Positions 27,208 to 56,815 are shown, counted from the first letter of the stretch. The stretch: 64,000 nt of DNA from Escherichia coli (GCF_013122565.1 NZ_CP053258.1), one strand, 5' to 3'. The notes: a model not told the origin generated them from the letters alone. Program-made: numbers and translations.

Positions 27208-28299
27208 ATGCGTTTTCTGCGCCGACCAATATCGCTGCGCCAACGGCTGATATTGACCATCGGGGCCATTTTGTTGGTGTTTGAGCTGATCAGCGTCTTC
27301 TGGCTATGGCATGAAAGTACCGAGCAGATTCAGCTGTTTGAGCAGGCGCTACGCGACAATCGCAACAACGATCGCCACATCATGCGTGAGATCCGCGAGG
27401 CGGTCGCCAGCCTGATCGTCCCCGGCGTCTTTATGGTCAGCCTGACGCTATTTATCTGCTATCAGGCGGTACGCCGCATCACCCGCCCGCTGGCGGAGCT
27501 GCAAAAAGAGCTGGAAGCGCGCACCGCCGACAACTTAACGCCCATTGCCATTCACAGCGCCACCCTCGAAATCGAAGCGGTGGTTTCGGCGTTGAACGAT
27601 CTGGTCAGTCGCCTGACCAGCACGCTGGATAACGAAAGGTTGTTTACCGCTGACGTCGCGCACGAACTGCGAACGCCACTGGCGGGGGTGCGTTTGCATC
27701 TGGAACTGCTGGCGAAAACGCATCACATTGATGTAGCACCGTTAGTGGCACGGCTTGATCAGATGATGGAGAGCGTCTCCCAGCTGCTGCAACTGGCGCG
27801 TGCCGGACAGTCATTTTCTTCCGGTAATTATCAACATGTAAAACTGCTGGAAGATGTCATTCTCCCCTCGTATGACGAACTCAGTACCATGCTCGACCAG
27901 CGCCAGCAAACCCTGCTATTGCCAGAGAGCGCCGCCGACATCACCGTTCAGGGTGATGCAACCCTGCTGCGGATGTTATTGCGAAACCTGGTAGAAAACG
28001 CCCATCGTTACAGCCCGCAAGGCAGCAACATTATGATTAAGCTGCAAGAAGATGGCGGAGCGGTCATGGCTGTTGAAGATGAAGGTCCGGGTATTGATGA
28101 GAGTAAATGCGGGGAGTTGAGTAAAGCATTTGTACGTATGGACAGCCGTTATGGCGGGATTGGTCTGGGGTTAAGTATTGTCAGCCGCATTACACAGTTG
28201 CATCACGGGCAGTTTTTCCTGCAAAACCGGCAAGAGACTTCCGGCACGCGGGCCTGGGTACGGCTGAAGAAAGATCAAAACGTGACAAACCAGATATAA
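27208..28299 (+). CDS. basS: Sensor histidine kinase BasS/PmrB
   Basis: ORF 27199..28299 opens on TTG; ATG at 27208 (MRFLRRP) gives 363 aa; two TM segments, HAMP, H-box (AHELRTP), ATPase domain. Confidence 0.85.
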   Translation: MRFLRRPISLRQRLILTIGAILLVFELISVFWLWHESTEQIQLFEQALRDNRNNDRHIMREIREAVASLIVPGVFMVSLTLFICYQAVRRITRPLAELQKELEARTADNLTPIAIHSATLEIEAVVSALNDLVSRLTSTLDNERLFTADVAHELRTPLAGVRLHLELLAKTHHIDVAPLVARLDQMMESVSQLLQLARAGQSFSSGNYQHVKLLEDVILPSYDELSTMLDQRQQTLLLPESAADITVQGDATLLRMLLRNLVENAHRYSPQGSNIMIKLQEDGGAVMAVEDEGPGIDESKCGELSKAFVRMDSRYGGIGLGLSIVSRITQLHHGQFFLQNRQETSGTRAWVRLKKDQNVTNQI

Positions 28300-28435
28300 A
28301 GAAAGCTGCTGACCACCAGCACGCTGAACACGGTAGTTAAACTTTCATAAACACGGTTTTTCATTGCACTCTCCTCCGTTAACCTGGAGGAGAGTATGCG
28401 CGTCAGAGATTAAGTGAACCTTAAGAGTTCAATTG

Positions 28436-34097: not shown

Positions 34098-34279
<182 letters not shown>

Positions 34280-34347: not shown

Positions 34348-34782
34348 ATGCCGTTAAGTCCCTACCTCTCTTTTGCCGGTAACTGTTCCGACGCGATTGC
34401 CTATTATCAACGTACGTTGGGCGCGGAACTGCTCTATAAAATCAGCTTCGGCGAAATGCCAAAATCAGCGCAGGACAGCGCCGAGAACTGCCCTTCCGGA
34501 ATGCAATTTCCCGATACCGCCATCGCTCATGCCAACGTGCGCATTGCCGGAAGCGACATCATGATGAGCGATGCTATACCGTCAGGAAAAGCTAGCTACT
34601 CCGGCTTTACGCTGGTGCTCGATTCGCAACAGGTCGAAGAAGGAAAACGCTGGTTTGATAACCTTGCCGCTAACGGAAAAATCGAAATGGCCTGGCAGGA
34701 AACTTTCTGGGCGCATGGCTTCGGCAAAGTCACCGATAAATTTGGCGTACCGTGGATGATTAATGTCGTTAAACAACAATAA
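34348..34782 (+). CDS. phnB: PhnB-like glyoxalase/bleomycin-resistance fold protein
   Basis: ORF 34249..34782 runs through the BIME; start placed at MPLSPYLSF (GAGG ribosome-binding site upstream), about 144 aa. Confidence 0.75.
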   Translation: MPLSPYLSFAGNCSDAIAYYQRTLGAELLYKISFGEMPKSAQDSAENCPSGMQFPDTAIAHANVRIAGSDIMMSDAIPSGKASYSGFTLVLDSQQVEEGKRWFDNLAANGKIEMAWQETFWAHGFGKVTDKFGVPWMINVVKQQ

Positions 34783-34832
34783 TAGCTACCTGCTGCGCCC
34801 ACTGGCGTTAATTCCCAAAAAGGAGAAATACC

Positions 34833-35267
34833 ATGCCTGCTTGTGAGCTTCGACCGGCCACGCAGTACGACACCGACGCGGTTTACGCACTGATTTGTGA
34901 GCTAAAACAGGCGGAGTTTGACCACCACGCGTTTCGCGTGGGCTTTAACGCCAACCTGCGCGACCCAAACATGCGCTACCATCTGGCGCTGCTGGATGGC
35001 GAAGTTGTCGGCATGATCGGCCTGCATTTGCAGTTTCATCTGCATCATGTCAACTGGATCGGCGAAATTCAGGAACTGGTGGTGATGCCGCAGGCACGCG
35101 GTTTGAACGTTGGTAGCAAGTTGCTGGCGTGGGCGGAAGAGGAAGCCCGTCAGGCCGGGGCCGAAATGACCGAGCTTTCTACCAACGTGAAGCGCCACGA
35201 CGCGCACCGTTTTTATCTGCGCGAAGGCTATGAGCAGAGCCATTTCCGTTTCACTAAGGCGCTGTAA
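34833..35267 (+). CDS. phnO: GNAT-family N-acetyltransferase, PhnO-like
   Basis: 144 aa; acetyl-CoA binding motif (Q/R-x-x-G-x-G/A pattern: [11 protein letters not shown]); recognised as PhnO-like from sequence and from its position after phnB and before yjdP. Confidence 0.55.
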
Positions 35268-35279
35268 GATGAGCCTACC

Positions 35280-35609
35280 TCATCGCCCATACTCATCTTC
35301 CATTCTCCGCTCTTCATCTTCTAGCTGCCGACGCTCCTGATCAAGCTGGCGCTGGCGATCGTCCAGTTGCCTGCGGCGATCTTCAAACTGGCGGCGGCGA
35401 TCGTCATATTGTCTGCGACGATCGTCGCTCACTTCACGCTGCCAGCTGTCGTCGCGCGAATCTTCATAGTCTCGCCCACGGTCAGGGTTATAAGCGTCGT
35501 TAATCGCCTGCTGAATATTGCCAATGGTGTCGTCGATAATATCGGCCTGGGCCGGAACGGTGGACAGCGTGAGCAGGGTGAAAAGAAAGAGCGTGGAGTG
35601 GTGTTTCAT
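35280..35609 (-). CDS. yjdP: Small secreted low-complexity protein YjdP
   Basis: 109 aa; N-terminal signal peptide, then an Arg/Asp/Gln/Glu-rich repetitive tail. Confidence 0.7.
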   Translation of the reverse strand: MKHHSTLFLFTLLTLSTVPAQADIIDDTIGNIQQAINDAYNPDRGRDYEDSRDDSWQREVSDDRRRQYDDRRRQFEDRRRQLDDRQRQLDQERRQLEDEERRMEDEYGR

Positions 35610-35677
35610 AAACTCAGCCTCGCAACAAAGTTAATACAAGGTAGGCAAAGGTACCTGTCGCGAGTAGCGGAGGATTC

Positions 35678-37939
35678 TCAATTCTCTTGCCCCAGAACCT
35701 GCGCCAGCTGCGCGCGGGTAAAAGGTTTGCGCAACAGCGCTACGTCTGGCAGCGCGGGGTTATGGCTGGGGCGTAAATCCTGGCCGCTGATGAGTAGCAG
35801 CGTCAGATGCGGGTAAAGTTCGCGGGCCGCATTGACCACTTCTGCGCCGCTCATGCCGCCTGGGAGCATTAAATCGCTGATAAAAATATCGATTTCCGCT
35901 GATGCCGCCAGCAGGTCCAGCGCCTGTTCGCCGCTGCTCGCTTCCAGCGTCAAATAGCCCAGCAGGTGTAACTGCTCGCAGATGGTCTGGCGCACCGCGG
36001 CTTCATCTTCCAGCACGAGCACCAGTTTATCGCCGCTGACGGCTGTCTGTTCTACCGCCGCTGGCGATAGGTTTTTCGCCGCCGTCAGCGCGCGGGGAAG
36101 CTGTAATCTGACCGTTGTCCCCTGCCCCGGCGCGCTTTCAATTTCTACACGCCCACCGGACTGGCGCACAAAACCATAGACCATCGACAAGCCCAGCCCG
36201 CTGCCACTCCCCGTCTGTTTGGTGGTAAAGAACGGCTCAAAGACCTGGCTTTTCACCGCCTGCGACATACCGCTGCCATGATCGATGACCTCCAGCGCCA
36301 CCATGTCCTGACGCTGCCCACTGCTGCGGGTAACGCGCTGATTCCAGGTACGAATTTTGATAATTCCCGTCAGCCCTTCCATCGCATCGCGGGCGTTCAT
36401 CACCAGATTGATGATGGCATTTTCCAGCTGGCTGACATCAATCCACGCGGGCCATGCCGGAGACTGCGCTTCAATCTCAATCGTCAGCGTCGCCGGTAAG
36501 GAGTGGCGCATTAATTCGCTTAACTCTTCCAGCAGTGTTTTTAGCTCAACGGCTTGCGGATGTAAGGACTGCTTGCGGGAAAACGCCAGTAGTCGCTGGG
36601 TCAGTAGCGCGCCACGTTCGGCAGCTTGCTGCGCCCGCTGTATTCGCGGCGCGTCGGGTGAGTCCGTGTTCACCAGTTCCAGGCTGCCAATAATTACCGC
36701 CAACAGATTATTAAAATCATGGGCCAGCCCACCCGTCAATTGCCCAACCGCTTTCAGTTTCTGGCTGTGTAATAGCGCCTCTTCCAGCCCCTGCCTCTCG
36801 GTTTGGGCAATCTCCATCTGCGTGGTTTTCTCTTTCAACAGCCTTGACGTTCGTTCGAGTGACGCGGTATTGCGGGCAAAAACGTTAAAGGCGCGCGCCA
36901 GTTCACCCAACTCATCGCGCCGCTGTAACGCCGGAAAAGTGACGTCCGCTTCGCCGTGCGCCAGGCGGCTCATAGCGCGGGAAATCGCCGTCAGGTTAGA
37001 GCCGAGATTGCGATAGATATACCAACCTGCAAATGCGGTGATCACCACCGCTAACAGAGCGAAAATCATGATCACCCTCTCGCCGGAGCGCAAATCCTGG
37101 TAACTTTGCGCCACCCGCTGACCGGAGAGCATCGCCACCTGTTCGGCGTAACGGTTGATGTCGCCATTAAGGATCGCCACCAGCGCTTTGATGTGAAACA
37201 TATACCAGCTGATTGCCAGATCGCTTTGCTCCAGAGCGGCAGAAAGCGGCGCGAGTTTACGCAGTTCATCATTGAAATCATTGAGTAGCGTATTAACCAA
37301 TGGCGTATCGCTGTGGGTCGGCAACGCAGACATTACCCCGACCAGTTGATGAATAATCGCCTGCGGCGCGGGGGTGGCAATAGCGGCAACAATCAGTCGG
37401 TTCATCTCGTTAAGCAAAATATCATCTTGCGCATTAGTGACTTTTTGCAGATGCCGCAGATAACTTAAGTTTTGATACAGCGAACTTAACAGCGCGTTGC
37501 GCTCCAGATGTCGCCTTTGCCCGCGCTCCAACATTCCGCCGACGCTGGTTTGCAGTTCGTTGCTACGCGTGATGATGCGCGCCACCAGCCCGGCCTCCTG
37601 CTGCGCTAACGGCGCGTTCGCCAGTTGTGCAAGCGAGCTTTTTAATGCCCGCTGTGTCTCCTGCAATCGCTCGGCTTCGCCTTTATATTCCAGCGCTCCC
37701 ACCACTTGTGACAATCGCACCGCCGCCGTCGCCACATTTGCCGTGTCGCGCGCCAGATTCAGGCTGCCGGTCATATCATCCACCGTTTGCTGCTGTACCA
37801 GCTCCTGCATCTGGCTGGCATGACGAAAGCCCATTACCGCCACGCCGCTGACCATCAGCGTCACCGCTACCACCAGCAAATTCAAAAGCAGCAATCGCCC
37901 GCGCGCGCTGGCAAAAAAGTGACGTCCGGGGTGCGCCAT
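35678..37939 (-). CDS. Hybrid sensor histidine kinase with periplasmic domain and C-terminal receiver
   Basis: ORF 35678..38035; start placed at the in-frame ATG (MAHPGRHFF) with a GGAG ribosome-binding site, about 753 aa; TM1, ~280 aa periplasmic domain, TM2, HAMP, H-box (GGLAHDFNNLL), ATPase domain, receiver domain (LVLVLEDE...ISDLMLPGGMSG); no HPt domain seen. Confidence 0.8.
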   Translation of the reverse strand: MAHPGRHFFASARGRLLLLNLLVVAVTLMVSGVAVMGFRHASQMQELVQQQTVDDMTGSLNLARDTANVATAAVRLSQVVGALEYKGEAERLQETQRALKSSLAQLANAPLAQQEAGLVARIITRSNELQTSVGGMLERGQRRHLERNALLSSLYQNLSYLRHLQKVTNAQDDILLNEMNRLIVAAIATPAPQAIIHQLVGVMSALPTHSDTPLVNTLLNDFNDELRKLAPLSAALEQSDLAISWYMFHIKALVAILNGDINRYAEQVAMLSGQRVAQSYQDLRSGERVIMIFALLAVVITAFAGWYIYRNLGSNLTAISRAMSRLAHGEADVTFPALQRRDELGELARAFNVFARNTASLERTSRLLKEKTTQMEIAQTERQGLEEALLHSQKLKAVGQLTGGLAHDFNNLLAVIIGSLELVNTDSPDAPRIQRAQQAAERGALLTQRLLAFSRKQSLHPQAVELKTLLEELSELMRHSLPATLTIEIEAQSPAWPAWIDVSQLENAIINLVMNARDAMEGLTGIIKIRTWNQRVTRSSGQRQDMVALEVIDHGSGMSQAVKSQVFEPFFTTKQTGSGSGLGLSMVYGFVRQSGGRVEIESAPGQGTTVRLQLPRALTAAKNLSPAAVEQTAVSGDKLVLVLEDEAAVRQTICEQLHLLGYLTLEASSGEQALDLLAASAEIDIFISDLMLPGGMSGAEVVNAARELYPHLTLLLISGQDLRPSHNPALPDVALLRKPFTRAQLAQVLGQEN

Positions 37940-38052
37940 ATCACGCTCCGTGAAGAAAAATCGCAATATGACAAATATGAACGGCTTCTGACATTTTGCA
38001 TTTACTTTCCTGTGATGGAGTGCTGATATCGACAACCTCGCAGGAGTCCACC

Positions 38053-39573
38053 ATGAACAGCACGCCGGTTCTGGAGATGCGCAATATTGCCAAAGCTTTT
38101 GGCAAATTTTATGCGCTCAAAGGGGTGGATTTGACGGTCTACCCAGGAGAGATCCACGCCCTGATGGGGGAAAACGGCGCCGGAAAAAGCACGCTGATGA
38201 AGGTGCTGGCGGGGGCGTATACCGCCACCAGCGGCGAGATCCTGATAGACGGCAAGCCCTTTCACATTCGCACGCCGAAAGATGCCTTAAGCGCCGGTAT
38301 TACCCTGATTTATCAGGAGATGCAGCTGGCACCCAATTTGACGGTGGCAGAAAATATTTTTCTCGGCAGCGAGCTTTCCCACGGCGGGCTGGTGCAGCGT
38401 AAAGAGATGCTGGTGCAGGCGCAAAAAGTGATCGACCGCCTCGGCGCGCAGTTTAACGCCAGCGATAAGGTCATGACGCTGACCATTGCCGAGCAACAAC
38501 AGGTCGAAATCGCCCGGGCGCTGCATCGCAACAGCCGCATTCTGGTGATGGACGAACCCACCGCAGCCCTCTCCTCGCGTGAAACTCACCGCCTGTTTGA
38601 ATTAATCATGCGGCTGCGCGATGAAGGGATGGCGATTATCTACATTAGCCACCGCATGGCGGAAGTGTATGAGCTTTCCGATCGCGTCAGCGTGCTGCGC
38701 GACGGGCAATACGTTGGCAGCCTGACCCGCGACAACCTCAACGCCGGGGAGCTGGTGCGGATGATGGTCGGCAGGCCACTGAGCGATCTGTTCAATAAAG
38801 AGCGCGATATCCCGCTCGGTAAAGCCCGCCTGAACGTTCACCACCTGACCGACGGCGGCAAAGTCCAGCCGAGTAGCCTGCTGGTGCGTTCCGGCGAAAT
38901 TGTTGGCCTCGCCGGACTGGTGGGTGCCGGACGTTCCGAACTGGCGCAGTTGATCTTCGGCGTGCGCAAAGCGACAGGCGGAATGATTGAAGTCGATGGC
39001 GAACCGGTGGTGATCCACTCCCCGCGCGAAGCCATCGATCTTGGCATTGGCTTTCTCACCGAAAACCGCAAAGAACAAGGCTTATTCCTTGAAATGGCGG
39101 CAGCCGAAAACATCACCATGGCAACCCTGGAGCGCGACGCCCGCTGGGGAATGCTCAATCGCAAAAAAGCGCAAACCATTTCCGATGACGCCATTAAGTT
39201 GCTCAACATTCGCGTGCCTCATGCCCAGGTGCGCGCGGGCGGGCTTTCCGGCGGCAATCAGCAAAAACTGTTGATCTCCCGCTGGGTGGCGATTGGCCCG
39301 CGCATTTTACTGCTCGATGAACCCACCCGCGGCGTGGACGTTGGCGCAAAAAGCGAGATCTACCGGATCATGAACGAGATGGCACGCAAGGGCGTGGCGA
39401 TCCTGATGATCTCCAGCGAACTGCCGGAGATAGTGGGAATGAGCGATCGCGTCTATGTGATGCGTGAAGGCAGCATTGCCGGTGAGTTAAACGGCAAAAA
39501 CATCACCCAGGAAAACATTATGACCTTAGCGACCGGAGTTAACGACGCCCATTCCCAGGCGGTGACCTCATGA
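38053..39573 (+). CDS. Sugar ABC transporter ATP-binding protein with two nucleotide-binding domains
   Basis: ORF 37996..39573; start at MNSTPVLEM (AGGAG ribosome-binding site), about 506 aa; two Walker A motifs (GENGAGKST and GLVGAGRSE) and two signature motifs (LSGGNQQK), as in the RbsA/AlsA/MglA family. Confidence 0.85.
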
Positions 39574-40544
39574 CGACCTCTGCAAAAACCTCTGCCAAAA
39601 AAATGCTGATGAGCGATCTGATGCAAACGGTCGGCATCTTGCCCATTTTGATTCTGATCGTGGCGGTATTTGGCTTTATCGCGCCAAACTTTTTTAACGA
39701 AAGCAACCTGCTAAATATTACCCGCCAGGCGTCGATCAACATTGTGCTGGCGGCGGGAATGACCTTCATCATTTTGACTGGCGGGATCGATCTTTCTGTA
39801 GGTTCAATTCTCGGCACCACGGCGGTGGCGGCGATGGTCGTCTCCCTTAGCCCTGAGTTCGCCATGCTGTCGATCCCGGCGGCGCTGATGCTCGGTCTGC
39901 TGCTGGGGCTGTTCAACGGCGCGCTGGTGGCCTTTGCCGGATTGCCGCCGTTTATCGTCACGCTTGGCACCTATACGGCGCTGCGCGGGGCGGCGTATCT
40001 GCTGGCGGACGGCACCACGGTTATCAACTCCAACATTAATTTCGAGTGGATAGGCAATAACTATCTCGGGCCGGTCCCGTGGCTGGTGGTGATTGCGCTG
40101 GCGGTGATCGTGGTGTGCTGGTTTATTCTGCGCCGCACCACGCTTGGTGTTCATATCTACGCCGTCGGCGGCAATATGCAGGCGGCGCGTCTTACCGGCA
40201 TTAAGGTCTGGCTGGTGCTGCTGTTTGTTTATGGCATGAGCGGCCTGCTTTCAGGGCTTGGCGGGATTATGAGCGCCTCGCGGCTGTACAGCGCCAACGG
40301 CAACTTAGGCATGGGTTACGAACTGGACGCCATTGCGGCGGTGATCCTCGGCGGCACCAGTTTTGTCGGCGGCATCGGCACCATCACCGGCACGCTGGTC
40401 GGGGCGCTAATTATCGCCACGCTCAACAATGGCATGACCTTAATGGGCGTCTCTTACTTCTGGCAACTGGTGATCAAAGGGGCGGTGATCATCATTGCGG
40501 TGCTGATCGACAAATACCGTACCCGACACCATCAAAGTGCATAA
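39570..40544 (+). CDS. Sugar ABC transporter permease
   Basis: 324 aa, about 10 TM segments; start overlaps the ATPase stop. Confidence 0.85.
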
Positions 40545-40562
40545 ACACATGAGGAATACAGC

Positions 40563-41504
40563 ATGAGATTGAAGCCCTTAGTGACCGCGCTCTGTGCAGG
40601 CGCGCTGCTGGCCGCAGCACCGTTCGCCCAAGCGAAAGAACTGAAATCGATAGGCGTAACGGTGGGCGATCTGGCGAACCCGTTCTTCGTGCAGATCACC
40701 AAAGGCGCGGAGCTGGAAGCACGCAAACTGGCAGGCGATAACGTCAAAGTGACGCTGGTTTCCAGCGGCTACGATCTGGGCCAGCAGGTGTCGCAGATAG
40801 ACAACTTTATCGCCGCTAACGTCGATATGATTATCCTCAACGCTGCCGATTCAAAAGGGATCGGCCCGGCGGTGAAACGGGCGAAAGATGCCGGGATCGT
40901 GGTCGTCGCGGTTGACGTGGCGGCAGAAGGTGCCGATGCCACTATCACTTCCGATAACACCCAGGCAGGCGAAATGGCCTGTAAATACATCACCGATCGC
41001 CTGAAAGGCAAAGGCAATGTGGTGATCATCAACGGCCCGCCGGTGTCCGCCGTGCAAAACCGCGTTGAAGGATGCCAGACTGAATTTAAACGCCATCCTG
41101 ACATCAAGGTACTCTCTGACAACCAGAACGCGAAAGGCAGTCGTGAAGGCGGGCTGGAGGTAATGACCGGACTGCTGGCGGCAAATCCGAAGATCGACGG
41201 TGTATTTGCGATTAACGATCCGACAGCGATCGGTGCCGATCTGGCAGCAAAACAGGCGCAACGTAACGAGTTCTTTATTGTCGGCGTAGACGGAAGCCCG
41301 GACGCCGAAGAGGCGCTAAAACGTGAGAACTCGTTGTTTGTCGCCACTCCAGCACAAGATCCCCAGGTGATGGCAGCAAAAGCGGTTGAGATCGGTTATG
41401 ACATTTTGCAGGGCAAACCCGCGCCGAAAGAGCCGGTGCTGATCCCGGTGACGATGATCGATAAAAACAACGTCGGCAATTACAAAGGCTGGACGGTGAA
41501 ATAA
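40563..41504 (+). CDS. Periplasmic sugar-binding protein (RbsB/AlsB-like)
   Basis: 313 aa; signal peptide (MRLKPLVTALCAGALLAAAPFAQA), type I periplasmic binding fold. Confidence 0.85.
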   Translation: MRLKPLVTALCAGALLAAAPFAQAKELKSIGVTVGDLANPFFVQITKGAELEARKLAGDNVKVTLVSSGYDLGQQVSQIDNFIAANVDMIILNAADSKGIGPAVKRAKDAGIVVVAVDVAAEGADATITSDNTQAGEMACKYITDRLKGKGNVVIINGPPVSAVQNRVEGCQTEFKRHPDIKVLSDNQNAKGSREGGLEVMTGLLAANPKIDGVFAINDPTAIGADLAAKQAQRNEFFIVGVDGSPDAEEALKRENSLFVATPAQDPQVMAAKAVEIGYDILQGKPAPKEPVLIPVTMIDKNNVGNYKGWTVK

Positions 41505-41558
41505 GCCCACACGCCGGGCGGCGCAGCTGCCCGGTCACCGCTAAGGAGAACGCTTTCG

Positions 41559-42242
41559 ATGAAACGCTCCGCTATAAACGACATTCTCGGCCATACACGG
41601 CAATTCTTTTCGCAACATGACGTACATCTGCCGCCCTTTGCCAGTTTCTCGCCTGCTCAATGGCAGCAGCTCGACACCGCCGCGTGGGAGGAGGTTTTTG
41701 ATCTCAAACTCGGCTGGGATGTTACCGCTTTTGGTGGCAACAACTTTGCAGCACAGGGGCTGACGCTGTTTACCCTACGTAACGGCTCAGCAAAAGGAAT
41801 GCCGTATGTGAAATGTTACGCCGAGAAGATCATGCATGTGCGCGATGCGCAGGTCACGCCAATGCATTTTCACTGGCGTAAGCGTGAGGACATTATCAAT
41901 CGCGGCGGCGGTAATTTAATTGTTGAACTGTGGAATACCGATAGTAACGAGCAAACGGCTGATAGTGACGTTACGGTGGTGATAGACGGCTGCCGCCAGA
42001 AACATACTGCAGGCACTCAGTTGCGCCTGTCTCCCGGCGAAAGTATCTGCCTGCCGCCCGGCCTGTATCACAGCTTTTGGGCGGAAACCGGTTTTGGCGA
42101 TGTACTGGTTGGCGAAGTCTCTTCTGTCAATGACGACGACCACGATAACCACTTTTTACAGCCACTGGACCGCTACAACCTGATTGACGAAGACGAACCT
42201 GCACAGTTGGTGTTGTGTAACGAATACCGCCAGTTCCGCTGA
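41559..42242 (+). CDS. Cupin-fold sugar isomerase, D-lyxose/D-mannose isomerase-like
   Basis: 227 aa; cupin metal-binding pattern (HxH...E...H: HFHWRKREDIINRGGG...LYHSF); operon context with transporter, kinase and aldolase. Confidence 0.65.
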   Translation: MKRSAINDILGHTRQFFSQHDVHLPPFASFSPAQWQQLDTAAWEEVFDLKLGWDVTAFGGNNFAAQGLTLFTLRNGSAKGMPYVKCYAEKIMHVRDAQVTPMHFHWRKREDIINRGGGNLIVELWNTDSNEQTADSDVTVVIDGCRQKHTAGTQLRLSPGESICLPPGLYHSFWAETGFGDVLVGEVSSVNDDDHDNHFLQPLDRYNLIDEDEPAQLVLCNEYRQFR

Positions 42243-42256
42243 ATAAGGAGAACGTT

Positions 42257-43117
42257 ATGTCATTGATTTCTCTCGCTGAAGGGCTGGCTCATGCCCGCGA
42301 ACATCGCTATGCGTTAGGTGCGTTTAATGTACTGGACTCGCACTTTTTACGCGCCTTGTTTGCTGCTGCCAGACAAGAACGTTCGCCCTTTATTATCAAC
42401 ATTGCCGAAGTACATTATAAATATATCTCGCTGGAATCCCTGGTCGAGACAGTGAAATTTGAAGCGGCGCGCCATGCCATTCCGGTGGTATTAAATCTCG
42501 ATCACGGGCTGCATTTTGAGTCGGTGGTGCAAGCGTTGCGGCTGGGATTCAGCTCGGTAATGTTTGATGGCTCCACGCTGGGGTATGAAGAAAATGTCCG
42601 CCAAACGCGGGAAGTGGTGAAAATGTGCCATGCCGTTGGCGTATCGGTAGAAGCTGAACTGGGCGCGGTGGGTGGCGACGAAGGCGGTGCGCTCTATGGT
42701 CATGCCGATGAATCCCTGTTTACCGATCCGCAACTGGCGCGTGATTTTGTCGACCGTACCGGCATTGACGCGCTGGCCGTGGCGATTGGCAATGCACACG
42801 GCAAATATCGCGGCGAACCGAAACTCGATTTCCTACGCCTCGACGCTATCCGCCAGCAGGCTGCTATCCCGCTGGTATTACACGGCGGCTCAGGGATTAG
42901 CGATGCCGATTTCCGCCGCGCCATCGAACGGGGTATCCACAAAATCAATTTCTACACTGGCATGTCGCAAGCGGCGCTGGCTGCCGTTGAGGCCCGAATG
43001 GCGCACCGTCAGCCGATGTATGATGAGTTTGCCGAGTTACTACTAGCAGTGGAAGCCGCCATCAGCGATACGGTTGCACAACAGATGCGTATTTTCGGCA
43101 GTGCGGGGCAGGCATGA
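42257..43117 (+). CDS. Class II ketose-bisphosphate aldolase family protein
   Basis: 286 aa; FBA class II / tagatose-bisphosphate aldolase family (LDHG, HGGSG motifs). Confidence 0.75.
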   Translation: MSLISLAEGLAHAREHRYALGAFNVLDSHFLRALFAAARQERSPFIINIAEVHYKYISLESLVETVKFEAARHAIPVVLNLDHGLHFESVVQALRLGFSSVMFDGSTLGYEENVRQTREVVKMCHAVGVSVEAELGAVGGDEGGALYGHADESLFTDPQLARDFVDRTGIDALAVAIGNAHGKYRGEPKLDFLRLDAIRQQAAIPLVLHGGSGISDADFRRAIERGIHKINFYTGMSQAALAAVEARMAHRQPMYDEFAELLLAVEAAISDTVAQQMRIFGSAGQA

Positions 43118-44115
43118 TGGAACGTAGAGGGATTATCGCCGCAGGCAATATGTTGGTTGACCACGTCCATCAGATTATCCAGTGGCCAGAGCGCGGCTGG
43201 CTGGCGGAGATTACCCACAGCGAACGCTCCACCGGCGGCGCGCCGCTTAATGTCCTGCTGACACTGGCGAAAATGCGCACCGGGTTGCCGTTACAGGCGG
43301 TTGGGCTAATCGGTCAGGACAGCGACGGCGATTACATCATGGCGATGCTTGAGCAATATCACGTCAATCGTCAGCATGTGCAGCGCACTACCTTTGCCCC
43401 GACGTCGATGTCACAGGTGATGACCGACCCAAGCGGGCAGCGGACGTTTTTCCATTCGCCGGGTGCAAACAGACTTTTGGATCTTCCGGCGTTCGATCAG
43501 CTCGATAACACCATGAAGATTTTCCATCTCGGCTATTTACTGTTGCTCGACAGCCTGGATATGCCGGACGATGTTTACGGCACCCGTAGCGCACGACTGC
43601 TGGCGCAAATGCGTGATACTGGCTTTGAAACCTCACTCGACCTGGTCTCCCGCAAGGGCGATCCGCGTTATCAGCCGCTGGTGCTGCCCGCGTTGCGCCA
43701 TCTGGATTATCTGGTAATTAACGAACTGGAGGCCGGGGAGTTTAGTGGGCTGGAAATTCGGTTACCCAACGGCGAACCGCATATCGCGCATATTGCTGCC
43801 GCCGCGCGTGAACTGTTAGATGCGGGCGTGCGCCAGCGTGTGGTGATCCACTGCCCGGAAGGGGCCTGGGGAGAAACCCCGGAACAGGGCGGCGTGTGGA
43901 TCCCTTCGCAAAAGTTAGAACAACGGGAAATTATCGGCAGCGTCGGTGCGGGCGATGCATTTTGTGCCGGATTTTTATATGGCTGCCATGAGTGCTGGGC
44001 GCTAACTGAGAGCATAAAACTGGCACATGCCTGCGCGCGGGCAAGCCTGTTATGCGCTAATGCCATCGACGGGGCAAAAACGCTGGAAGAGTTGCAAACA
44101 GAAATGTCAGATTAA
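43114..44115 (+). CDS. PfkB-family carbohydrate kinase
   Basis: 333 aa; C-terminal GAGDAF motif of the ribokinase/PfkB family; start overlaps the aldolase stop. Confidence 0.75.
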   Translation: MMERRGIIAAGNMLVDHVHQIIQWPERGWLAEITHSERSTGGAPLNVLLTLAKMRTGLPLQAVGLIGQDSDGDYIMAMLEQYHVNRQHVQRTTFAPTSMSQVMTDPSGQRTFFHSPGANRLLDLPAFDQLDNTMKIFHLGYLLLLDSLDMPDDVYGTRSARLLAQMRDTGFETSLDLVSRKGDPRYQPLVLPALRHLDYLVINELEAGEFSGLEIRLPNGEPHIAHIAAAARELLDAGVRQRVVIHCPEGAWGETPEQGGVWIPSQKLEQREIIGSVGAGDAFCAGFLYGCHECWALTESIKLAHACARASLLCANAIDGAKTLEELQTEMSD

Positions 44116-44819
44116 TGCACGTCGGCAGCGAAGACATACCCCAGGCCGCGCAGAGTTTTAATCAACATCGGCTGATGCGGATTGAGTTCGATTTTGCGTC
44201 GTAAGCGCATGATTAAGACGTCGATGGTGCGATCAAACACTTCCACGCTATCGCTATGAGTGAACGCCAGCAGCTGCTCGCGGCTTAATACCCGACGGGC
44301 ATTTTGTGCCAGGGCCAGTAACAAGCCATATTCGCCCTGAGTCAGCTCGACATGTTGTTGTAGCGGACTATGCAGTTGACAGCGAATGGTATCGAGATAC
44401 CAGCCATTGAATGACAGCCCGGCGTTTTTCTCCTCGTTAACCGCCAGCGCGCCAACCCGTCGCAACACCGCTTTCAGTCGTGCGACCACCACCCGCGGGG
44501 TGAACGGTTTGCAGATGTAATCATCCGCGCCCATTTCCAGCCCGACCACCACATCAGACTCACTGCCCATGCCGGTCAACATCACCACCGGCAATGTCGG
44601 ACGCAGTTTCTGGATTTGCTGCAATATCCTCAGGCCGTTGGTATCGGGTAGCATCATATCCAGCACCACCAGCGCAATGTCAGGATCGCCCTCAATACGC
44701 AATATGGCCTCCTGTCCGGTATGGCAGACTGAAACCGTAAAGACATGTTCACTTAACACGTCCTGCAGCAGTGCGCAGATAGCCGTGTCATCATCCACCA
44801 CCAGCACGACGGGTTTCAT
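44112..44819 (-). CDS. OmpR-family response regulator
   Basis: ORF 44112..44837; start placed at MKPVVLVVDDD (GGAG ribosome-binding site), 235 aa; receiver domain plus winged-helix output (TLRGLGYVF); 3' end overlaps the convergent kinase gene by 4 bp. Confidence 0.8.
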   Translation of the reverse strand: MKPVVLVVDDDTAICALLQDVLSEHVFTVSVCHTGQEAILRIEGDPDIALVVLDMMLPDTNGLRILQQIQKLRPTLPVVMLTGMGSESDVVVGLEMGADDYICKPFTPRVVVARLKAVLRRVGALAVNEEKNAGLSFNGWYLDTIRCQLHSPLQQHVELTQGEYGLLLALAQNARRVLSREQLLAFTHSDSVEVFDRTIDVLIMRLRRKIELNPHQPMLIKTLRGLGYVFAADVH

Positions 44820-45109
44820 GGTTACACTCCGCATCATTCATCTGATTAATCATTGTGCGTACTTCTTGTCGAAGTGAAAGCTGAAAGTAATATAAATAAT
44901 AAAAATATAAGTCAGGTCACATTATTGATGATAGTAATAAATATGCCGTACTTTTCCCTCTTCAGCACAAATGCCTAATAAAATGGCGCGTTCCGCTCAC
45001 ACTTCCGCTTATTAAAGTCGCAAATTCCCAATTATGATAACCCCAGCTTTAAATGACGTATTTTGCATGGATTACATATTTACGACATAAATGATAAATG
45101 GAGATTTAT

Positions 45110-50680: not shown

Positions 50681-52143
50681 TCAATCGTCAACTTTCACGT
50701 CTGCTGTTGTGCATCATTCTCGGCAGCACGACGCTGATTTCCGGCTGTGCCCTGGTACGTAAGGATTCTGCGCCTCATCAACAGCTCAAACCGGAACAAA
50801 TCAAACTGGCCGATGATATTCATCTTGCCAGCTCCGGCTGGCCGCAGGCGCAGTGGTGGAAACAACTCAATGACCCGCAGTTGGATGCCCTGATCCAACG
50901 GACGCTAAGTGGTTCACACACCCTCGCCGAAGCGAAACTGCGGGAAGAAAAAGCGCAGTCCCAGGCCGATTTGTTAGATGCTGGTTCACAGTTGCAGGTG
51001 GCAGCGTTAGGGATGCTTAACCGCCAACGTGTCTCGGCGAACGGCTTTTTAAGCCCTTATGCGATGGATGCGCCCGCACTGGGGATGGACGGGCCGTACT
51101 ATACGGAAGCCACAGTAGGTTTGTTTGCCGGATTGGATCTCGATTTGTGGGGTGTGCATCGCTCAGCGGTTGCCGCCGCCATTGGCGCGCATAATGCCGC
51201 GCTGGCAGAAACCGCAGCAGTAGAGCTATCGCTGACCACGGGCGTAGCGCAGCTTTATTACAGTATGCAGGCCAGCTATCAGATGCTCGATCTGTTAGAA
51301 CAAACTCGCGATGTGATTGATTACGCGGTAAAAGCGCACCAGAGTAAAGTGGCGCACGGTCTGGAAGCGCAAGTGCCTTTCCACGGCGCGCGGGCACAGA
51401 TTCTGGCGGTCGATAAACAAATTGCTGCCGTTAAAGGGCAAATCACCGAAACGCGAGAATCTCTGCGCGCATTGATTGGCGCGGGAGCCAGCGATATGCC
51501 GGAGATCAAACCGGTGGCATTACCACGAGTCCAGACCGGCATTCCGGCGACACTCTCTTATGAGTTGCTCGCCAGACGCCCGGATCTGCAAGCGATGCGC
51601 TGGTATGTTCAGGCGTCATTAGATCAGGTGGATTCCGCGCGGGCGTTGTTCTACCCGAGCTTTGATATCAAAGCGTTTTTCGGCCTTGATGCCATCCACC
51701 TGGATACCTTATTCAAAAAAACCAGTCGCCAGTTCAACTTCATCCCGGGTCTGAAATTGCCGCTGTTTGACGGTGGACGGTTGAATGCCAATCTCGAAGG
51801 CACTCGCGCCGCCAGCAACATGATGATTGAACGTTACAACCAGTCAGTACTGAACGCGGTGCGTGACGTTGCCGTCAACGGCACGCGTCTGCAAACGCTC
51901 AACGACGAGCGAGAAATGCAGGCTGAACGCGTGGAAGCCACGCGCTTCACCCAGCGCGCAGCCGAGGCCGCCTATCAACGCGGCTTAACCAGCCGCTTAC
52001 AGGCTACCGAAGCCCGGTTGCCAGTGCTTGCCGAAGAGATGTCATTACTGATGCTGGACAGCCGCCGGGTGATCCAAAGCATTCAGTTGATGAAATCGCT
52101 GGGCGGCGGGTATCAGGCAGGTCCCGTCGTCGAGAAAAAATAA
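50677..52143 (+). CDS. mdtP: Outer-membrane factor lipoprotein of the MdtNOP efflux system
   Basis: 488 aa; lipobox (LISGC) and TolC-like outer-membrane factor family. Confidence 0.85.
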   Translation: MINRQLSRLLLCIILGSTTLISGCALVRKDSAPHQQLKPEQIKLADDIHLASSGWPQAQWWKQLNDPQLDALIQRTLSGSHTLAEAKLREEKAQSQADLLDAGSQLQVAALGMLNRQRVSANGFLSPYAMDAPALGMDGPYYTEATVGLFAGLDLDLWGVHRSAVAAAIGAHNAALAETAAVELSLTTGVAQLYYSMQASYQMLDLLEQTRDVIDYAVKAHQSKVAHGLEAQVPFHGARAQILAVDKQIAAVKGQITETRESLRALIGAGASDMPEIKPVALPRVQTGIPATLSYELLARRPDLQAMRWYVQASLDQVDSARALFYPSFDIKAFFGLDAIHLDTLFKKTSRQFNFIPGLKLPLFDGGRLNANLEGTRAASNMMIERYNQSVLNAVRDVAVNGTRLQTLNDEREMQAERVEATRFTQRAAEAAYQRGLTSRLQATEARLPVLAEEMSLLMLDSRRVIQSIQLMKSLGGGYQAGPVVEKK

Positions 52144-52151
52144 AATGTCTG

Positions 52152-52185
52152 CCGCGTGATGGCTGTCACGCGGTATTTCGTTTCG
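52152..52185 (+). terminator. Candidate terminator after mdtP
   Basis: ccgcgtga / tcacgcgg stem followed by tatttcgtttcg. Confidence 0.5.
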
Positions 52186-52272
52186 TCACGTCAAAACTGA
52201 CGACAGCCTGTTTTTCGTCAGAGTTTTGAATAAATAGTGCCCGTAATATCAGGGAATGACCCCAAATAAAAT

Positions 52273-52291
52273 GTGGCATAAAAGATGCATA
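52273..52291 (+). promoter_or_regulatory. Sigma54 (-24/-12) promoter of fdhF
   Basis: TGGCAT-aaaaga-TGCAT gives the GG-N10-GC spacing of the sigma54 consensus, about 50 bp upstream of the fdhF ATG. Confidence 0.7.
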
Positions 52292-52340
52292 CTGTAGTCG
52301 AGAGCGCGTATGCGTGATTTGATTAACTGGAGCGAGACCG

Positions 52341-54488
52341 ATGAAAAAAGTCGTCACGGTTTGCCCCTATTGCGCATCAGGTTGCAAAATCAACCTGGTC
52401 GTCGATAACGGCAAAATCGTCCGGGCGGAGGCAGCGCAGGGGAAAACCAACCAGGGTACCCTGTGTCTGAAGGGTTATTATGGCTGGGATTTCATTAACG
52501 ATACCCAGATCCTGACCCCGCGCCTGAAAACCCCCATGATCCGTCGCCAGCGTGGCGGCAAACTCGAACCTGTTTCCTGGGATGAGGCACTGAATTACGT
52601 TGCCGAGCGCCTGAGCGCCATCAAAGAGAAGTACGGTCCGGATGCCATCCAGACGACCGGCTCCTCGCGTGGTACGGGTAACGAAACCAACTATGTAATG
52701 CAAAAATTTGCGCGCGCCGTTATTGGTACCAATAACGTTGACTGCTGCGCTCGTGTCTGACACGGCCCATCGGTTGCAGGTCTGCACCAATCGGTCGGTA
52801 ATGGCGCAATGAGCAATGCTATTAACGAAATTGATAATACCGATTTAGTGTTCGTTTTCGGGTACAACCCGGCGGATTCCCACCCAATCGTAGCGAATCA
52901 CGTAATTAACGCTAAACGTAACGGGGCGAAAATTATCGTCTGCGATCCGCGCAAAATTGAAACCGCGCGCATTGCTGACATGCACATTGCACTGAAAAAC
53001 GGCTCGAACATCGCGCTGTTGAATGCGATGGGCCATGTCATTATTGAAGAAAATTTGTACGACAAAGCGTTCGTCGCTTCCCGTACAGAAGGCTTTGAAG
53101 AGTATCGTAAAATCGTTGAAGGCTACACGCCGGAGTCGGTTGAAGATATCACCGGCGTCAGCGCCAGTGAGATTCGTCAGGCGGCACGGATGTATGCCCA
53201 GGCGAAAAGCGCCGCCATCCTGTGGGGCATGGGTGTAACCCAGTTCTACCAGGGCGTGGAAACCGTGCGTTCTCTGACCAGCCTCGCGATGCTGACCGGT
53301 AACCTCGGTAAGCCGCATGCGGGTGTAAACCCGGTTCGTGGTCAGAACAACGTGCAGGGTGCCTGCGATATGGGCGCGCTGCCGGATACGTATCCGGGAT
53401 ACCAGTACGTGAAAGATCCGGCTAACCGCGAGAAATTCGCCAAAGCCTGGGGCGTGGAAAGCCTGCCTGCTCATACCGGTTATCGCATCAGCGAGCTGCC
53501 GCACCGCGCAGCGCATGGCGAAGTGCGTGCCGCGTACATTATGGGCGAAGATCCGCTACAAACTGACGCGGAGCTGTCGGCAGTACGTAAAGCCTTTGAA
53601 GATCTGGAACTGGTCATCGTTCAGGACATCTTTATGACCAAAACCGCGTCGGCGGCGGATGTTATTTTACCGTCAACGTCGTGGGGCGAGCATGAAGGCG
53701 TGTTTACTGCGGCTGACCGTGGCTTCCAGCGTTTCTTCAAAGCAGTTGAACCGAAATGGGATCTGAAAACGGACTGGCAAATCATCAGTGAAATCGCTAC
53801 CCGAATGGGTTATCCGATGCACTACAACAACACCCAGGAGATCTGGGATGAGTTGCGTCATCTGTGCCCGGATTTCTACGGTGCGACTTACGAGAAAATG
53901 GGCGAACTGGGCTTCATTCAGTGGCCTTGCCGCGATACTTCAGATGCCGATCAGGGGACTTCTTATCTGTTTAAAGAGAAGTTTGATACCCCGAACGGTC
54001 TGGCGCAGTTCTTCACCTGCGACTGGGTAGCGCCAATCGACAAACTCACCGACGAGTACCCGATGGTACTGTCAACGGTGCGTGAAGTTGGTCACTACTC
54101 TTGCCGTTCGATGACCGGTAACTGTGCGGCACTGGCGGCGCTGGCTGATGAACCTGGCTACGCACAAATCAATACCGAAGACGCCAAACGTCTGGGTATT
54201 GAAGATGAGGCATTGGTTTGGGTGCACTCGCGTAAAGGCAAAATTATCACCCGTGCGCAGGTCAGCGATCGTCCGAACAAAGGGGCGATTTACATGACCT
54301 ACCAGTGGTGGATTGGTGCCTGTAACGAGCTGGTTACCGAAAACTTAAGCCCGATTACGAAAACGCCGGAGTACAAATACTGTGCCGTGCGCGTCGAGCC
54401 GATCGCCGATCAGCGCGCCGCCGAGCAGTACGTGATTGACGAGTACAACAAGTTGAAAACTCGCCTGCGCGAAGCGGCACTGGCGTAA
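52341..54488 (+). CDS. fdhF: Formate dehydrogenase H, selenocysteine-containing molybdoenzyme
   Basis: Two in-frame ORFs (52341..52760 and 52809..54488) joined by a single TGA at 52758..52760; read through as selenocysteine this gives a 715 aa protein with an N-terminal Fe-S cysteine motif (CPYCASGC) and a molybdopterin oxidoreductase fold. Confidence 0.85.
52758..52805 (+). other. SECIS element: in-frame UGA plus downstream stem-loop for selenocysteine insertion
   Basis: tga cacggcccatcggttgcaggtctgcaccaatcggtcggtaatgg forms the hairpin immediately 3' of the recoded UGA. Confidence 0.75.
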
Positions 54489-54504
54489 TACAGTCCTTTC
54501 TACA

Positions 54505-54531
54505 GCCTCCTTCCGGAGGCTGTTTTTTTAT
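54505..54531 (+). terminator. Rho-independent terminator after fdhF
   Basis: cagcctcc / ggaggctg stem with ttcc loop and a T7 run. Confidence 0.8.
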
Positions 54532-54581
54532 CCATTCGAACTCTTTATACTGGTTACTCCCTACCCAATCGTATTATCAAA

Positions 54582-55271
54582 ATGAAAAAAATTATCGCAT
54601 TGATGTTGTTTTTGACATTCTTTGCCCACGCGAACGACTCCGAGCCTGGCAGCCAGTATTTAAAGGCAGCAGAAGCCGGGGACCGACGCGCACAATATTT
54701 TCTTGCCGACAGCTGGTTTAGCTCCGGCGATTTGAGCAAAGCCGAATATTGGGCACAGAAAGCCGCCGACAGCGGTGATGCTGATGCCTGCGCGCTGCTG
54801 GCGCAGATCAAAATCACCAATCCGGTCAGTCTGGACTATCCACAAGCAAAAGTTCTTGCAGAGAAAGCGGCGCAAGCGGGCAGTAAAGAAGGTGAGGTGA
54901 CGCTGGCGCATATTCTGGTAAATACTCAAGCGGGTAAACCGGATTATCCAAAGGCGATTTCGCTGTTAGAAAACGCCTCGGAAGATCTGGAGAATGACTC
55001 CGCCGTCGATGCCCAAATGCTGCTTGGTTTGATTTACGCCAACGGCGTGGGCATTAAGGCCGACGATGACAAGGCAACCTGGTATTTCAAACGCAGCTCT
55101 GCGATTTCCCGAACCGGTTATTCCGAGTACTGGGCGGGAATGATGTTCTTAAACGGTGAAGAAGGTTTTATCGAGAAGAACAAACAAAAGGCGCTGCACT
55201 GGTTGAACCTGAGCTGTATGGAAGGGTTTGATACCGGCTGTGAAGAGTTTGAAAAATTAACCAACGGTTAA
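54582..55271 (+). CDS. yjcO: Sel1-repeat (TPR-like) exported protein
   Basis: 229 aa; signal peptide and repeated Sel1-like motifs. Confidence 0.75.
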   Translation: MKKIIALMLFLTFFAHANDSEPGSQYLKAAEAGDRRAQYFLADSWFSSGDLSKAEYWAQKAADSGDADACALLAQIKITNPVSLDYPQAKVLAEKAAQAGSKEGEVTLAHILVNTQAGKPDYPKAISLLENASEDLENDSAVDAQMLLGLIYANGVGIKADDDKATWYFKRSSAISRTGYSEYWAGMMFLNGEEGFIEKNKQKALHWLNLSCMEGFDTGCEEFEKLTNG

Positions 55272-56539
<1,268 letters not shown>

Positions 56540-56568
56540 CAACAGCGCCTGACGGCGCTGTATCTGGC

Positions 56569-56815
<247 letters not shown>

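Follow-up and report, generated by a model that had tools for sequence, protein, structure and literature searches.

The fdhF locus and its product

The E. coli DNA analysed here comprises 64,000 nucleotides (the window) and harbors the gene fdhF, which encodes formate dehydrogenase H (FDH-H), together with the regulatory and recoding signals compiled in Table 1. A mechanical search for open reading frames lists two pieces at this locus, namely one of 139 aa starting with ATG (52341..52760) and one of 559 aa (52809..54488), both located on the plus strand and in the same frame. This is the split that had been described in the initial annotation, where it was attributed to a single TGA. Translation of 52341..54488 in one frame gave 716 codons with stops at codons 140 and 716 only; the TGA at codon 140 is the sole internal stop, and a second one is absent from the entire region. 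Reading through this codon yields a product of 715 aa.

Table 1. Features of the fdhF locus; positions are counted from the first letter of the window.
Feature	Position	Strand	Remarks
Terminator-like hairpin downstream of mdtP	52150..52175	+	11-pair stem with 6 G-C pairs, T-rich tail TTTCGTTTCG
Upstream block TTCGTCACGTCAAAACTGACGACAGCCTGTTTTTCGTCAGA, putative FhlA upstream activating sequence	52182..52222	+	roughly -118 to -78 relative to the predicted start
Sigma-54 promoter GTGGCATAAAAGATGCA	52273..52289	+	GG at 52275-76, GC at 52287-88; start predicted at about 52300
Shine-Dalgarno-like GGAG	52329..52332	+	8 nt before ATG; read from the sequence
fdhF coding sequence	52341..54488	+	715 codons plus stop; formate dehydrogenase H
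SECIS	52753..52807	+	extent according to Rfam RF01988
In-frame TGA, codon 140 (Sec140)	52758..52760	+	translation, X at position 140 in PDB, conservation of TGA
Classical 40-nt SECIS	52758..52797	+	published definition
Apical 17-nt hairpin GGUUGCAGGUCUGCACC, presumed SelB-binding site	52772..52788	+	bulged U at 52774/52775; loop GGUC at 52779..52782
Intrinsic terminator ACAGCCTCCTTCCGGAGGCTGT followed by T7	54502..54530	+	9-pair stem with 6 G-C pairs, tail TTTTTTATCC

For protein comparisons, codon 140 was entered as Cys. The product aligned over residues 1-715 with the PDB sequence 1AA6_A; all 714 other residues were identical, and the X at position 140 of the PDB chain was the sole mismatch. 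The same sequence is deposited under 1FDI, 1FDO, 2IV2, and 7Z0T, all of them named 'formate dehydrogenase H'. The claim of a fused, full-length FDH-H of 715 aa was thereby borne out, and the alignment places a non-standard residue exactly where selenocysteine (Sec) had been proposed. Furthermore, the NCBIfam equivalog TIGR01591 (Fdh-alpha) matched residues 6-685 with 1095.7 bits, far above other families and above the curated equivalog cut-off of 666.25 bits. The order of Pfam domains is PF04879 (Molybdop_Fe4S4, residues 1-54), PF00384 (Molybdopterin, 61-487), and PF01568 (Molydop_binding, 576-682). In the published structure of FDH-H, Cys8, Cys11, Cys15, and Cys42 are the ligands of a [4Fe-4S] cluster, and Sec140, His141, and Arg333 form the active site. 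The product contains C8, C11, C15, C42, H141, and R333, and UGA is found at position 140. Judged by this identity, the product is FDH-H, a Mo-bis(MGD)/[4Fe-4S] selenoprotein that belongs to the formate hydrogenlyase complex, and would be expected to oxidise formate within that complex.

At the DNA level, the region 52100..54600 is 99.6% identical to E. coli fdhF regions. Among 5426 complete E. coli genomes, 5419 contain the fdhF region, flanked by mdtP and yjcO. In RefSeq, K-12 (b4079) and the best-matching strain alike have fdhF annotated as a single full-length coding sequence of 2148 nt. Comparison of 52100..54600 with K-12 revealed 19 nucleotide differences and not a single amino-acid change. 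Since the coding differences on both sides of the TGA are exclusively silent, the gene appears to be under purifying selection, unlike a pseudogene.

Promoter, putative enhancer and terminators

A -24/-12 promoter of the sigma-54 type had been proposed upstream of fdhF. The string TGGCATAAAAGATGCAT (TGGCAT-AAAAGA-TGCAT) is indeed present at 52274..52290, and its GG and GC elements show the canonical -24/-12 spacing of one helical turn. When TGGCAT-AAAAG-ATGCA was compared with the class TGGCAC-N5-TTGCW, one departure was counted, an A for T at position -14 (ATGCA instead of TTGCA), which also occurs in K-12 fdhF. The overlapping 17-mer at 52273..52289 is letter-identical to site OS41, a sigma-54 site determined by ChIP-seq (Bonocora et al. 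2015; PMC4591121). OS41 is listed with an occupancy (FAT) of 41, a PSSM score of 10.976, the EcoCyc status 'confirmed', and a predicted start 41 nt before fdhF (PMC4591121). By identity to the K-12 site, sigma-54 would be expected to occupy this promoter here as well.

The positional conservation of the promoter was analyzed in those fdhF-type loci of other Enterobacterales that came with 200 nt or more of sequence upstream (79 loci). Of these, 59 have the pattern TGGCA-N7-TGCA, which is expected by chance about 0.005 times per 300 nt, at a distance of 51-87 nt upstream of the ATG; the two blocks are invariant, and the spacer varies. This conservation argues for promoter function. The 20 loci without the pattern mostly have divergent N-termini, and some originate from species with two loci, which suggests that the promoter-less loci are second fdhF copies in other contexts.

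The flanks of the transcription unit are marked by two hairpins. The upstream one is an inverted repeat (CCGCGTGA/TCACGCGG) situated just past the end of mdtP (stop at 52143). It lies outside the fdhF gene, probably serves as the mdtP terminator, and delimits the control region of fdhF on the upstream side. The downstream one, the fdhF terminator, is located 14 nt past the stop codon; its hairpin occupies 54502..54523 and is followed by a run of T. Terminator-like hairpins after both mdtP and fdhF are consistent with a monocistronic unit.

The bare sigma-54 pattern is no rarer than chance, with 1 occurrence found as compared to 1.15 expected in the 64-kb window. Hence, the significance of the promoter derives from its position, its conservation, and the published ChIP-seq data rather than from the pattern alone. 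A degenerate pattern expected about once per 64 kb might match fortuitously, and fdhF would then depend on a sigma-70 promoter or on transcription reading through from mdtP, which ends just 197 nt upstream on the same strand. However, the exact 17-mer is a high-occupancy ChIP-seq site of sigma-54 with confirmed EcoCyc status (PMC4591121), TGGCA and TGCA remained invariant around a variable spacer in loci from many genera, a terminator-like hairpin follows mdtP, and a sigma-70-like promoter was not found on the plus strand upstream of fdhF. A chance match was therefore rejected as very improbable, and the -24/-12 element is regarded as the fdhF promoter.

Further upstream, a conserved block is located 52-92 nt before the -24 element, with the palindrome CGTCA-N4-TGACG as well as TTTCGTCA in two direct copies. 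Alignment of 60 upstream regions on the -24 element gave the consensus ttcg.c.cgtca....tgacga....ctg.ttttcgtcag, which can be written as TTCGaCACGTCA-N4-TGACGA-N4-CTGnTTTTCGTCAG. Of the 59 loci with the promoter, 55 also have the palindrome in the form CGTCA-N4-TGWCG. Both the position and the character of the block are those expected of an upstream activating sequence for FhlA (PMC11291172, PMC7658346). We infer that the block is the FhlA enhancer, with the assignment to FhlA taken from the literature and the coordinates from conservation and secondary citations.

Additionally, an imperfect inverted repeat of 13 nt (52280-92 and 52308-20, 77% complementary) was observed, covering the -12 element and the beginning of the 5' untranslated region. 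Upstream regions of Escherichia, Salmonella, Citrobacter, and Kluyvera retain this repeat, and those of the Enterobacter type lack it.

Recoding of UGA140 and the SECIS element

The region following the TGA had been described as a characteristic SECIS stem-loop. The Rfam model SECIS_2 (RF01988) matched with 87.1 bits (E = 2e-18) over model positions 1-55 of 55, well above its gathering score of 70 bits. Every pair of the RF01988 consensus is formed here, the first pair being G-U/G-C compatible. As the SECIS_2 model was presumably built from enterobacterial fdhF sequences, this match mostly repeats what identity with the known element already shows. With the U of UGA taken as position 1, the apical hairpin comprises nucleotides 15-31 and is separated from the UGA by a gap of 11 nt (52761-71). 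Of the nucleotides contacted by SelB, namely the bulged U17 as well as G23 and U24, the first belongs to U17/U18 at 52774/75, and the other two are located at 52780 (G23) and 52781 (U24) within the loop GGUC. This geometry, with the apical hairpin 11 nt 3' of the UGA, matches the published definition of the fdhF SECIS (PMC8659212, PMC4513850). Based on the literature, the apical hairpin would be bound by SelB.

RNA folding had been proposed as a check along with the stem-loop. Folding of 52753..52812 resulted in a minimum free energy structure of -21.4 kcal/mol which shares the SECIS architecture; it bulges U18 instead of U17, an energetically equivalent register. The stability of the hairpin is not significant as compared to shuffled sequences (z = -1.52; 18 of 200 shuffled sequences were as stable or more so) and was given no weight as evidence.

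Conservation of the element was examined by searching a single genome of each species with the apical 17-mer, which yielded 120 loci. The context CCARV-TGA-HGPSVAGLH identified 89 of these as fdhF-type, and all 89 carry TGA exactly 14 nt before the 17-mer. The remaining 31 are chance matches in unrelated contexts, none of which has TGA at that position. The fdhF-type loci, either orthologous or paralogous, were found in genera including Citrobacter, Enterobacter, Klebsiella, Salmonella, Serratia, Cedecea, and Budvicia. Because the orthologue set was retrieved by the apical 17-mer itself, the tip is invariant by construction and its conservation is circular. Across 48 distinct 60-nt sequences, 94% of the structure cells pair canonically, as compared to 26-49% when the partners were slid. 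No compensatory double changes were detected among these 48 closely related SECIS sequences; five pairs vary on one side only and remain wobble-compatible (C-G to U-G, U-A to U-G), and the predicted pairs 8-47 and 17-39 are not maintained.

A test of four-fold-degenerate sites, which is independent of the way the set was retrieved, was carried out with 70 distinct orthologues. The 129 four-fold sites of codons 1-330 outside codons 138-157 showed a mean entropy of 1.15 bits, and 3.9% of them were nearly invariant. The sites of codons 142, 151, 152, and 155, which are paired in the lower stem outside the 17-mer, are invariant. Those of codons 138 and 139, which pair with G, contain C or T only, both compatible with G. 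All four bases were found at the sites of codons 143, 153, and 156, which are unpaired or belong to a predicted pair that is not kept. This pattern of synonymous sites supports selection on RNA structure on top of the coding constraint. Synonymous sites of the lower stem, outside the 17-nt tip, seem to be subject to strong purifying selection across the Enterobacterales: four of nine four-fold sites are invariant and two more are restricted to C or T. It is conceivable, if unlikely, that the lower helix acts in its own right, for instance by pacing the ribosome or excluding RF2, beyond what experiments with a minimal SECIS suggest; the pattern could alternatively arise from effects of codon context or of neighbouring amino acids.

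The mechanical call of a 139-aa and a 559-aa piece would also result if fdhF were a pseudogene in which a nonsense mutation leaves only a 139-aa N-terminal fragment or nothing at all; moreover, translation would stop at the UGA in the absence of selenium or of sel genes (PMC4513850). However, TGA occupies the same codon in K-12 and the best-matching strain as well as in 89 of 89 fdhF-type loci of other genera, the protein past the TGA is identical to the crystallised enzyme, the coding differences from K-12 are all synonymous, and a SECIS passing its threshold directly follows the TGA. Conserved TGA, intact downstream protein, and SECIS together effectively refute the pseudogene, to which we assign next to no probability. 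The warning in the initial annotation that a pseudogene might be called here by mistake was justified; in RefSeq the gene is annotated as one coding sequence.

Sec at residue 140 of the K-12 protein has reportedly been identified by mass spectrometry already. The UGA could in principle be bypassed without SelB, either by near-cognate read-through with Trp or Cys or by a programmed frameshift, and low-level misreading of UGA in E. coli is general knowledge, although nothing specific to this locus points to it. A frameshift is unnecessary, given that the reading frame continues unaltered past the TGA, and a non-standard residue (X) is seen at position 140 of the solved structures. Moreover, the SECIS has the geometry that SelB requires and is under selection, and reporters carrying this very segment showed recoding that depends on SECIS and selenium (PMC4513850). 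This explanation was rejected as having hardly any chance of being correct. SelB-dependent insertion of Sec is retained as the reading of codon 140.

Taken together, expression of fdhF may be envisaged as follows. Transcription would start about 41 nt before the ATG from the sigma-54 (-24/-12) promoter, with the formate-sensing AAA+ activator FhlA, bound at an enhancer about 80-120 nt upstream, remodeling the sigma-54 holoenzyme. When the ribosome arrives at UGA140, the mRNA just downstream would fold into the SECIS hairpin, and the C-terminal domain of SelB would bind the apical 17-nt stem-loop. SelB-GTP would then bring Sec-tRNA(Sec) to the A site, and Sec would be inserted in competition with termination by RF2. 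In the protein, Sec140 would ligate molybdenum beside His141 and Arg333, and Cys8, Cys11, Cys15, and Cys42 would hold the [4Fe-4S] cluster. The sequences themselves establish which gene this is, the single in-frame TGA, the match and geometry of the SECIS, the promoter sequence with its conservation between genera, and the RNA-level constraint on synonymous sites; for binding of SelB, FhlA, and sigma-54 as well as for the catalytic roles of the residues, this scheme draws on the literature. A search for tRNA genes in the 64-kb window, directed at tRNA-Sec (selC), gave none; the window is syntenic with K-12 from dtpC/lysU to nrf, and the sel loci selA, selB, selC, and selD lie outside it. The competence of this genome for Sec insertion is assumed.

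Comparison with known systems

The locus is almost certainly the textbook E. coli fdhF selenoprotein gene, which is already known, and it offers nothing new. It is the founding example both of selenocysteine recoding in bacteria and of the control of formate hydrogenlyase by FhlA and sigma-54. Its value here is one of annotation: a naive gene caller produces two fragments or a pseudogene, and the correct annotation is one selenoprotein coding sequence with a translation exception at codon 140. With fdhF intact, the strain is expected to make FDH-H, provided that sel genes and selenium are present.

In K-12, fdhF (b4079) encodes the identical protein of 715 aa with Sec codon 140 and has the same neighbours, mdtP upstream and yjcO downstream; the SECIS, the sigma-54 17-mer, and the position of the terminator match as well. 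The differences from K-12 consist of 16 synonymous ones in the coding sequence and three non-coding ones, one before the promoter (52265) and two in the terminator region (54492, 54513). The SECIS and the -24/-12 element are free of differences, and so is the conserved upstream block.

The locus also shares the features of the formate regulon controlled by FhlA and sigma-54 (fdhF, hyc, hyp, hyf), namely a GG-N10-GC core and a putative palindromic enhancer about 100 nt upstream, and the predicted start 41 nt before the gene is the one tabulated for fdhF.

The genes fdnG and fdoG belong to the same Mo-bisPGD superfamily and likewise contain a UGA followed by a downstream SECIS. Their products are of the FDH-N type and comprise 1009 aa; the fdhF product reached only 249 bits with the corresponding model TIGR01553, as compared to a cut-off of 814. 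The FDH-N type enzymes are periplasmic, Tat-exported respiratory enzymes, and their genes have different SECIS sequences and are regulated by sigma-70, Fnr, and NarL.

fdhF and its upstream region

The 2.5-kb stretch carrying fdhF (52100-54600) was compared with 5426 complete E. coli genomes, the highest identity found among them being 99.6%; seven of these genomes gave no match to it. In the same collection, four fdhF matches lie on plasmid-typed records. Long collinear segments of the window are 98.1-98.8% identical to K-12. These identities place the source strain outside the collection.

An imperfect inverted repeat at the fdhF promoter connects its -12 element to the early part of the gene's 5' untranslated region (see table). 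Comparison of upstream regions revealed that the GCGCGTATGC arm of this repeat is present in Escherichia, Salmonella, Citrobacter, and Kluyvera and absent from upstream regions of the Enterobacter type.

Several species harbor two fdhF-type selenoprotein genes with the same SECIS tip, the apical 17-nt SelB-binding hairpin, in both. Such pairs of loci (L026/L027, L055/L056, L067/L068, and L074/L075 in our scan of one genome per species) were found in Pluralibacter, Cedecea, Silvania, and Klebsiella oxytoca; in each pair, an upstream region of the sigma-54/FhlA type precedes one copy only.

Features of the window outside the fdhF coding sequence
Feature	Position	Strand	Description
melB gap	17193-17214		K-12 positions 4344932 and 4343266 joined, about 20 nt between
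STnc630, enterobacterial sRNA	28268-28433	-	Rfam, 177.7 bits (threshold 55)
REP-type elements, two in tandem	34100-34276	+	Rfam naRNA4, 88.2 and 102 bits; yjdM-yjdN region
phn remnants	34779-35289		all that remains of the region; match K-12 4315081-4315551, 93.6% identity
9.4-kb segment without K-12 counterpart	35590-44948		takes the place of rpiB and the als (D-allose) operon
Imperfect inverted repeat, 13 nt	52280-52292 / 52308-52320		77% complementary
REP-type elements flanking the insertion	55276-55346 and 56667-56737		Rfam naRNA4
Insertion relative to K-12, about 1.28 kb	55347-56624		between yjcO and gltP
Transposase ORF, 326 aa	55539..56519	+	IS110-family, RNA-guided

Gene content compared with K-12

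Missing from the window are melB, encoding melibiose permease (about 1.67 kb in K-12), and, in the C-P lyase (phosphonate) operon, the stretch running from phnC through most of phnO/phnP, which spans about 9.7 kb in K-12. The segment replacing rpiB and als is annotated in other E. coli genomes with a sugar ABC transporter, a carbohydrate kinase, and a hybrid sensor kinase/response regulator. Among the 5426 complete genomes, only 410 contain 80% or more of this segment, with a top identity of 98.5%. By synteny, the STnc630 match is located close to the proP 3' end and pmrR/basS.

Insertion between yjcO and gltP

The transposase encoded by the insertion matched NF033542 with 252.7 bits as well as the Pfam domains DEDD_Tnp_IS110 and Transposase_20, and it is annotated in E. 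coli genomes as 'IS110-like element IS621 family transposase'. IS621 is a bridge-RNA recombinase element. The insertion is flanked by REP-type elements, a site which we take to be consistent with the targeting of REP elements by IS621.
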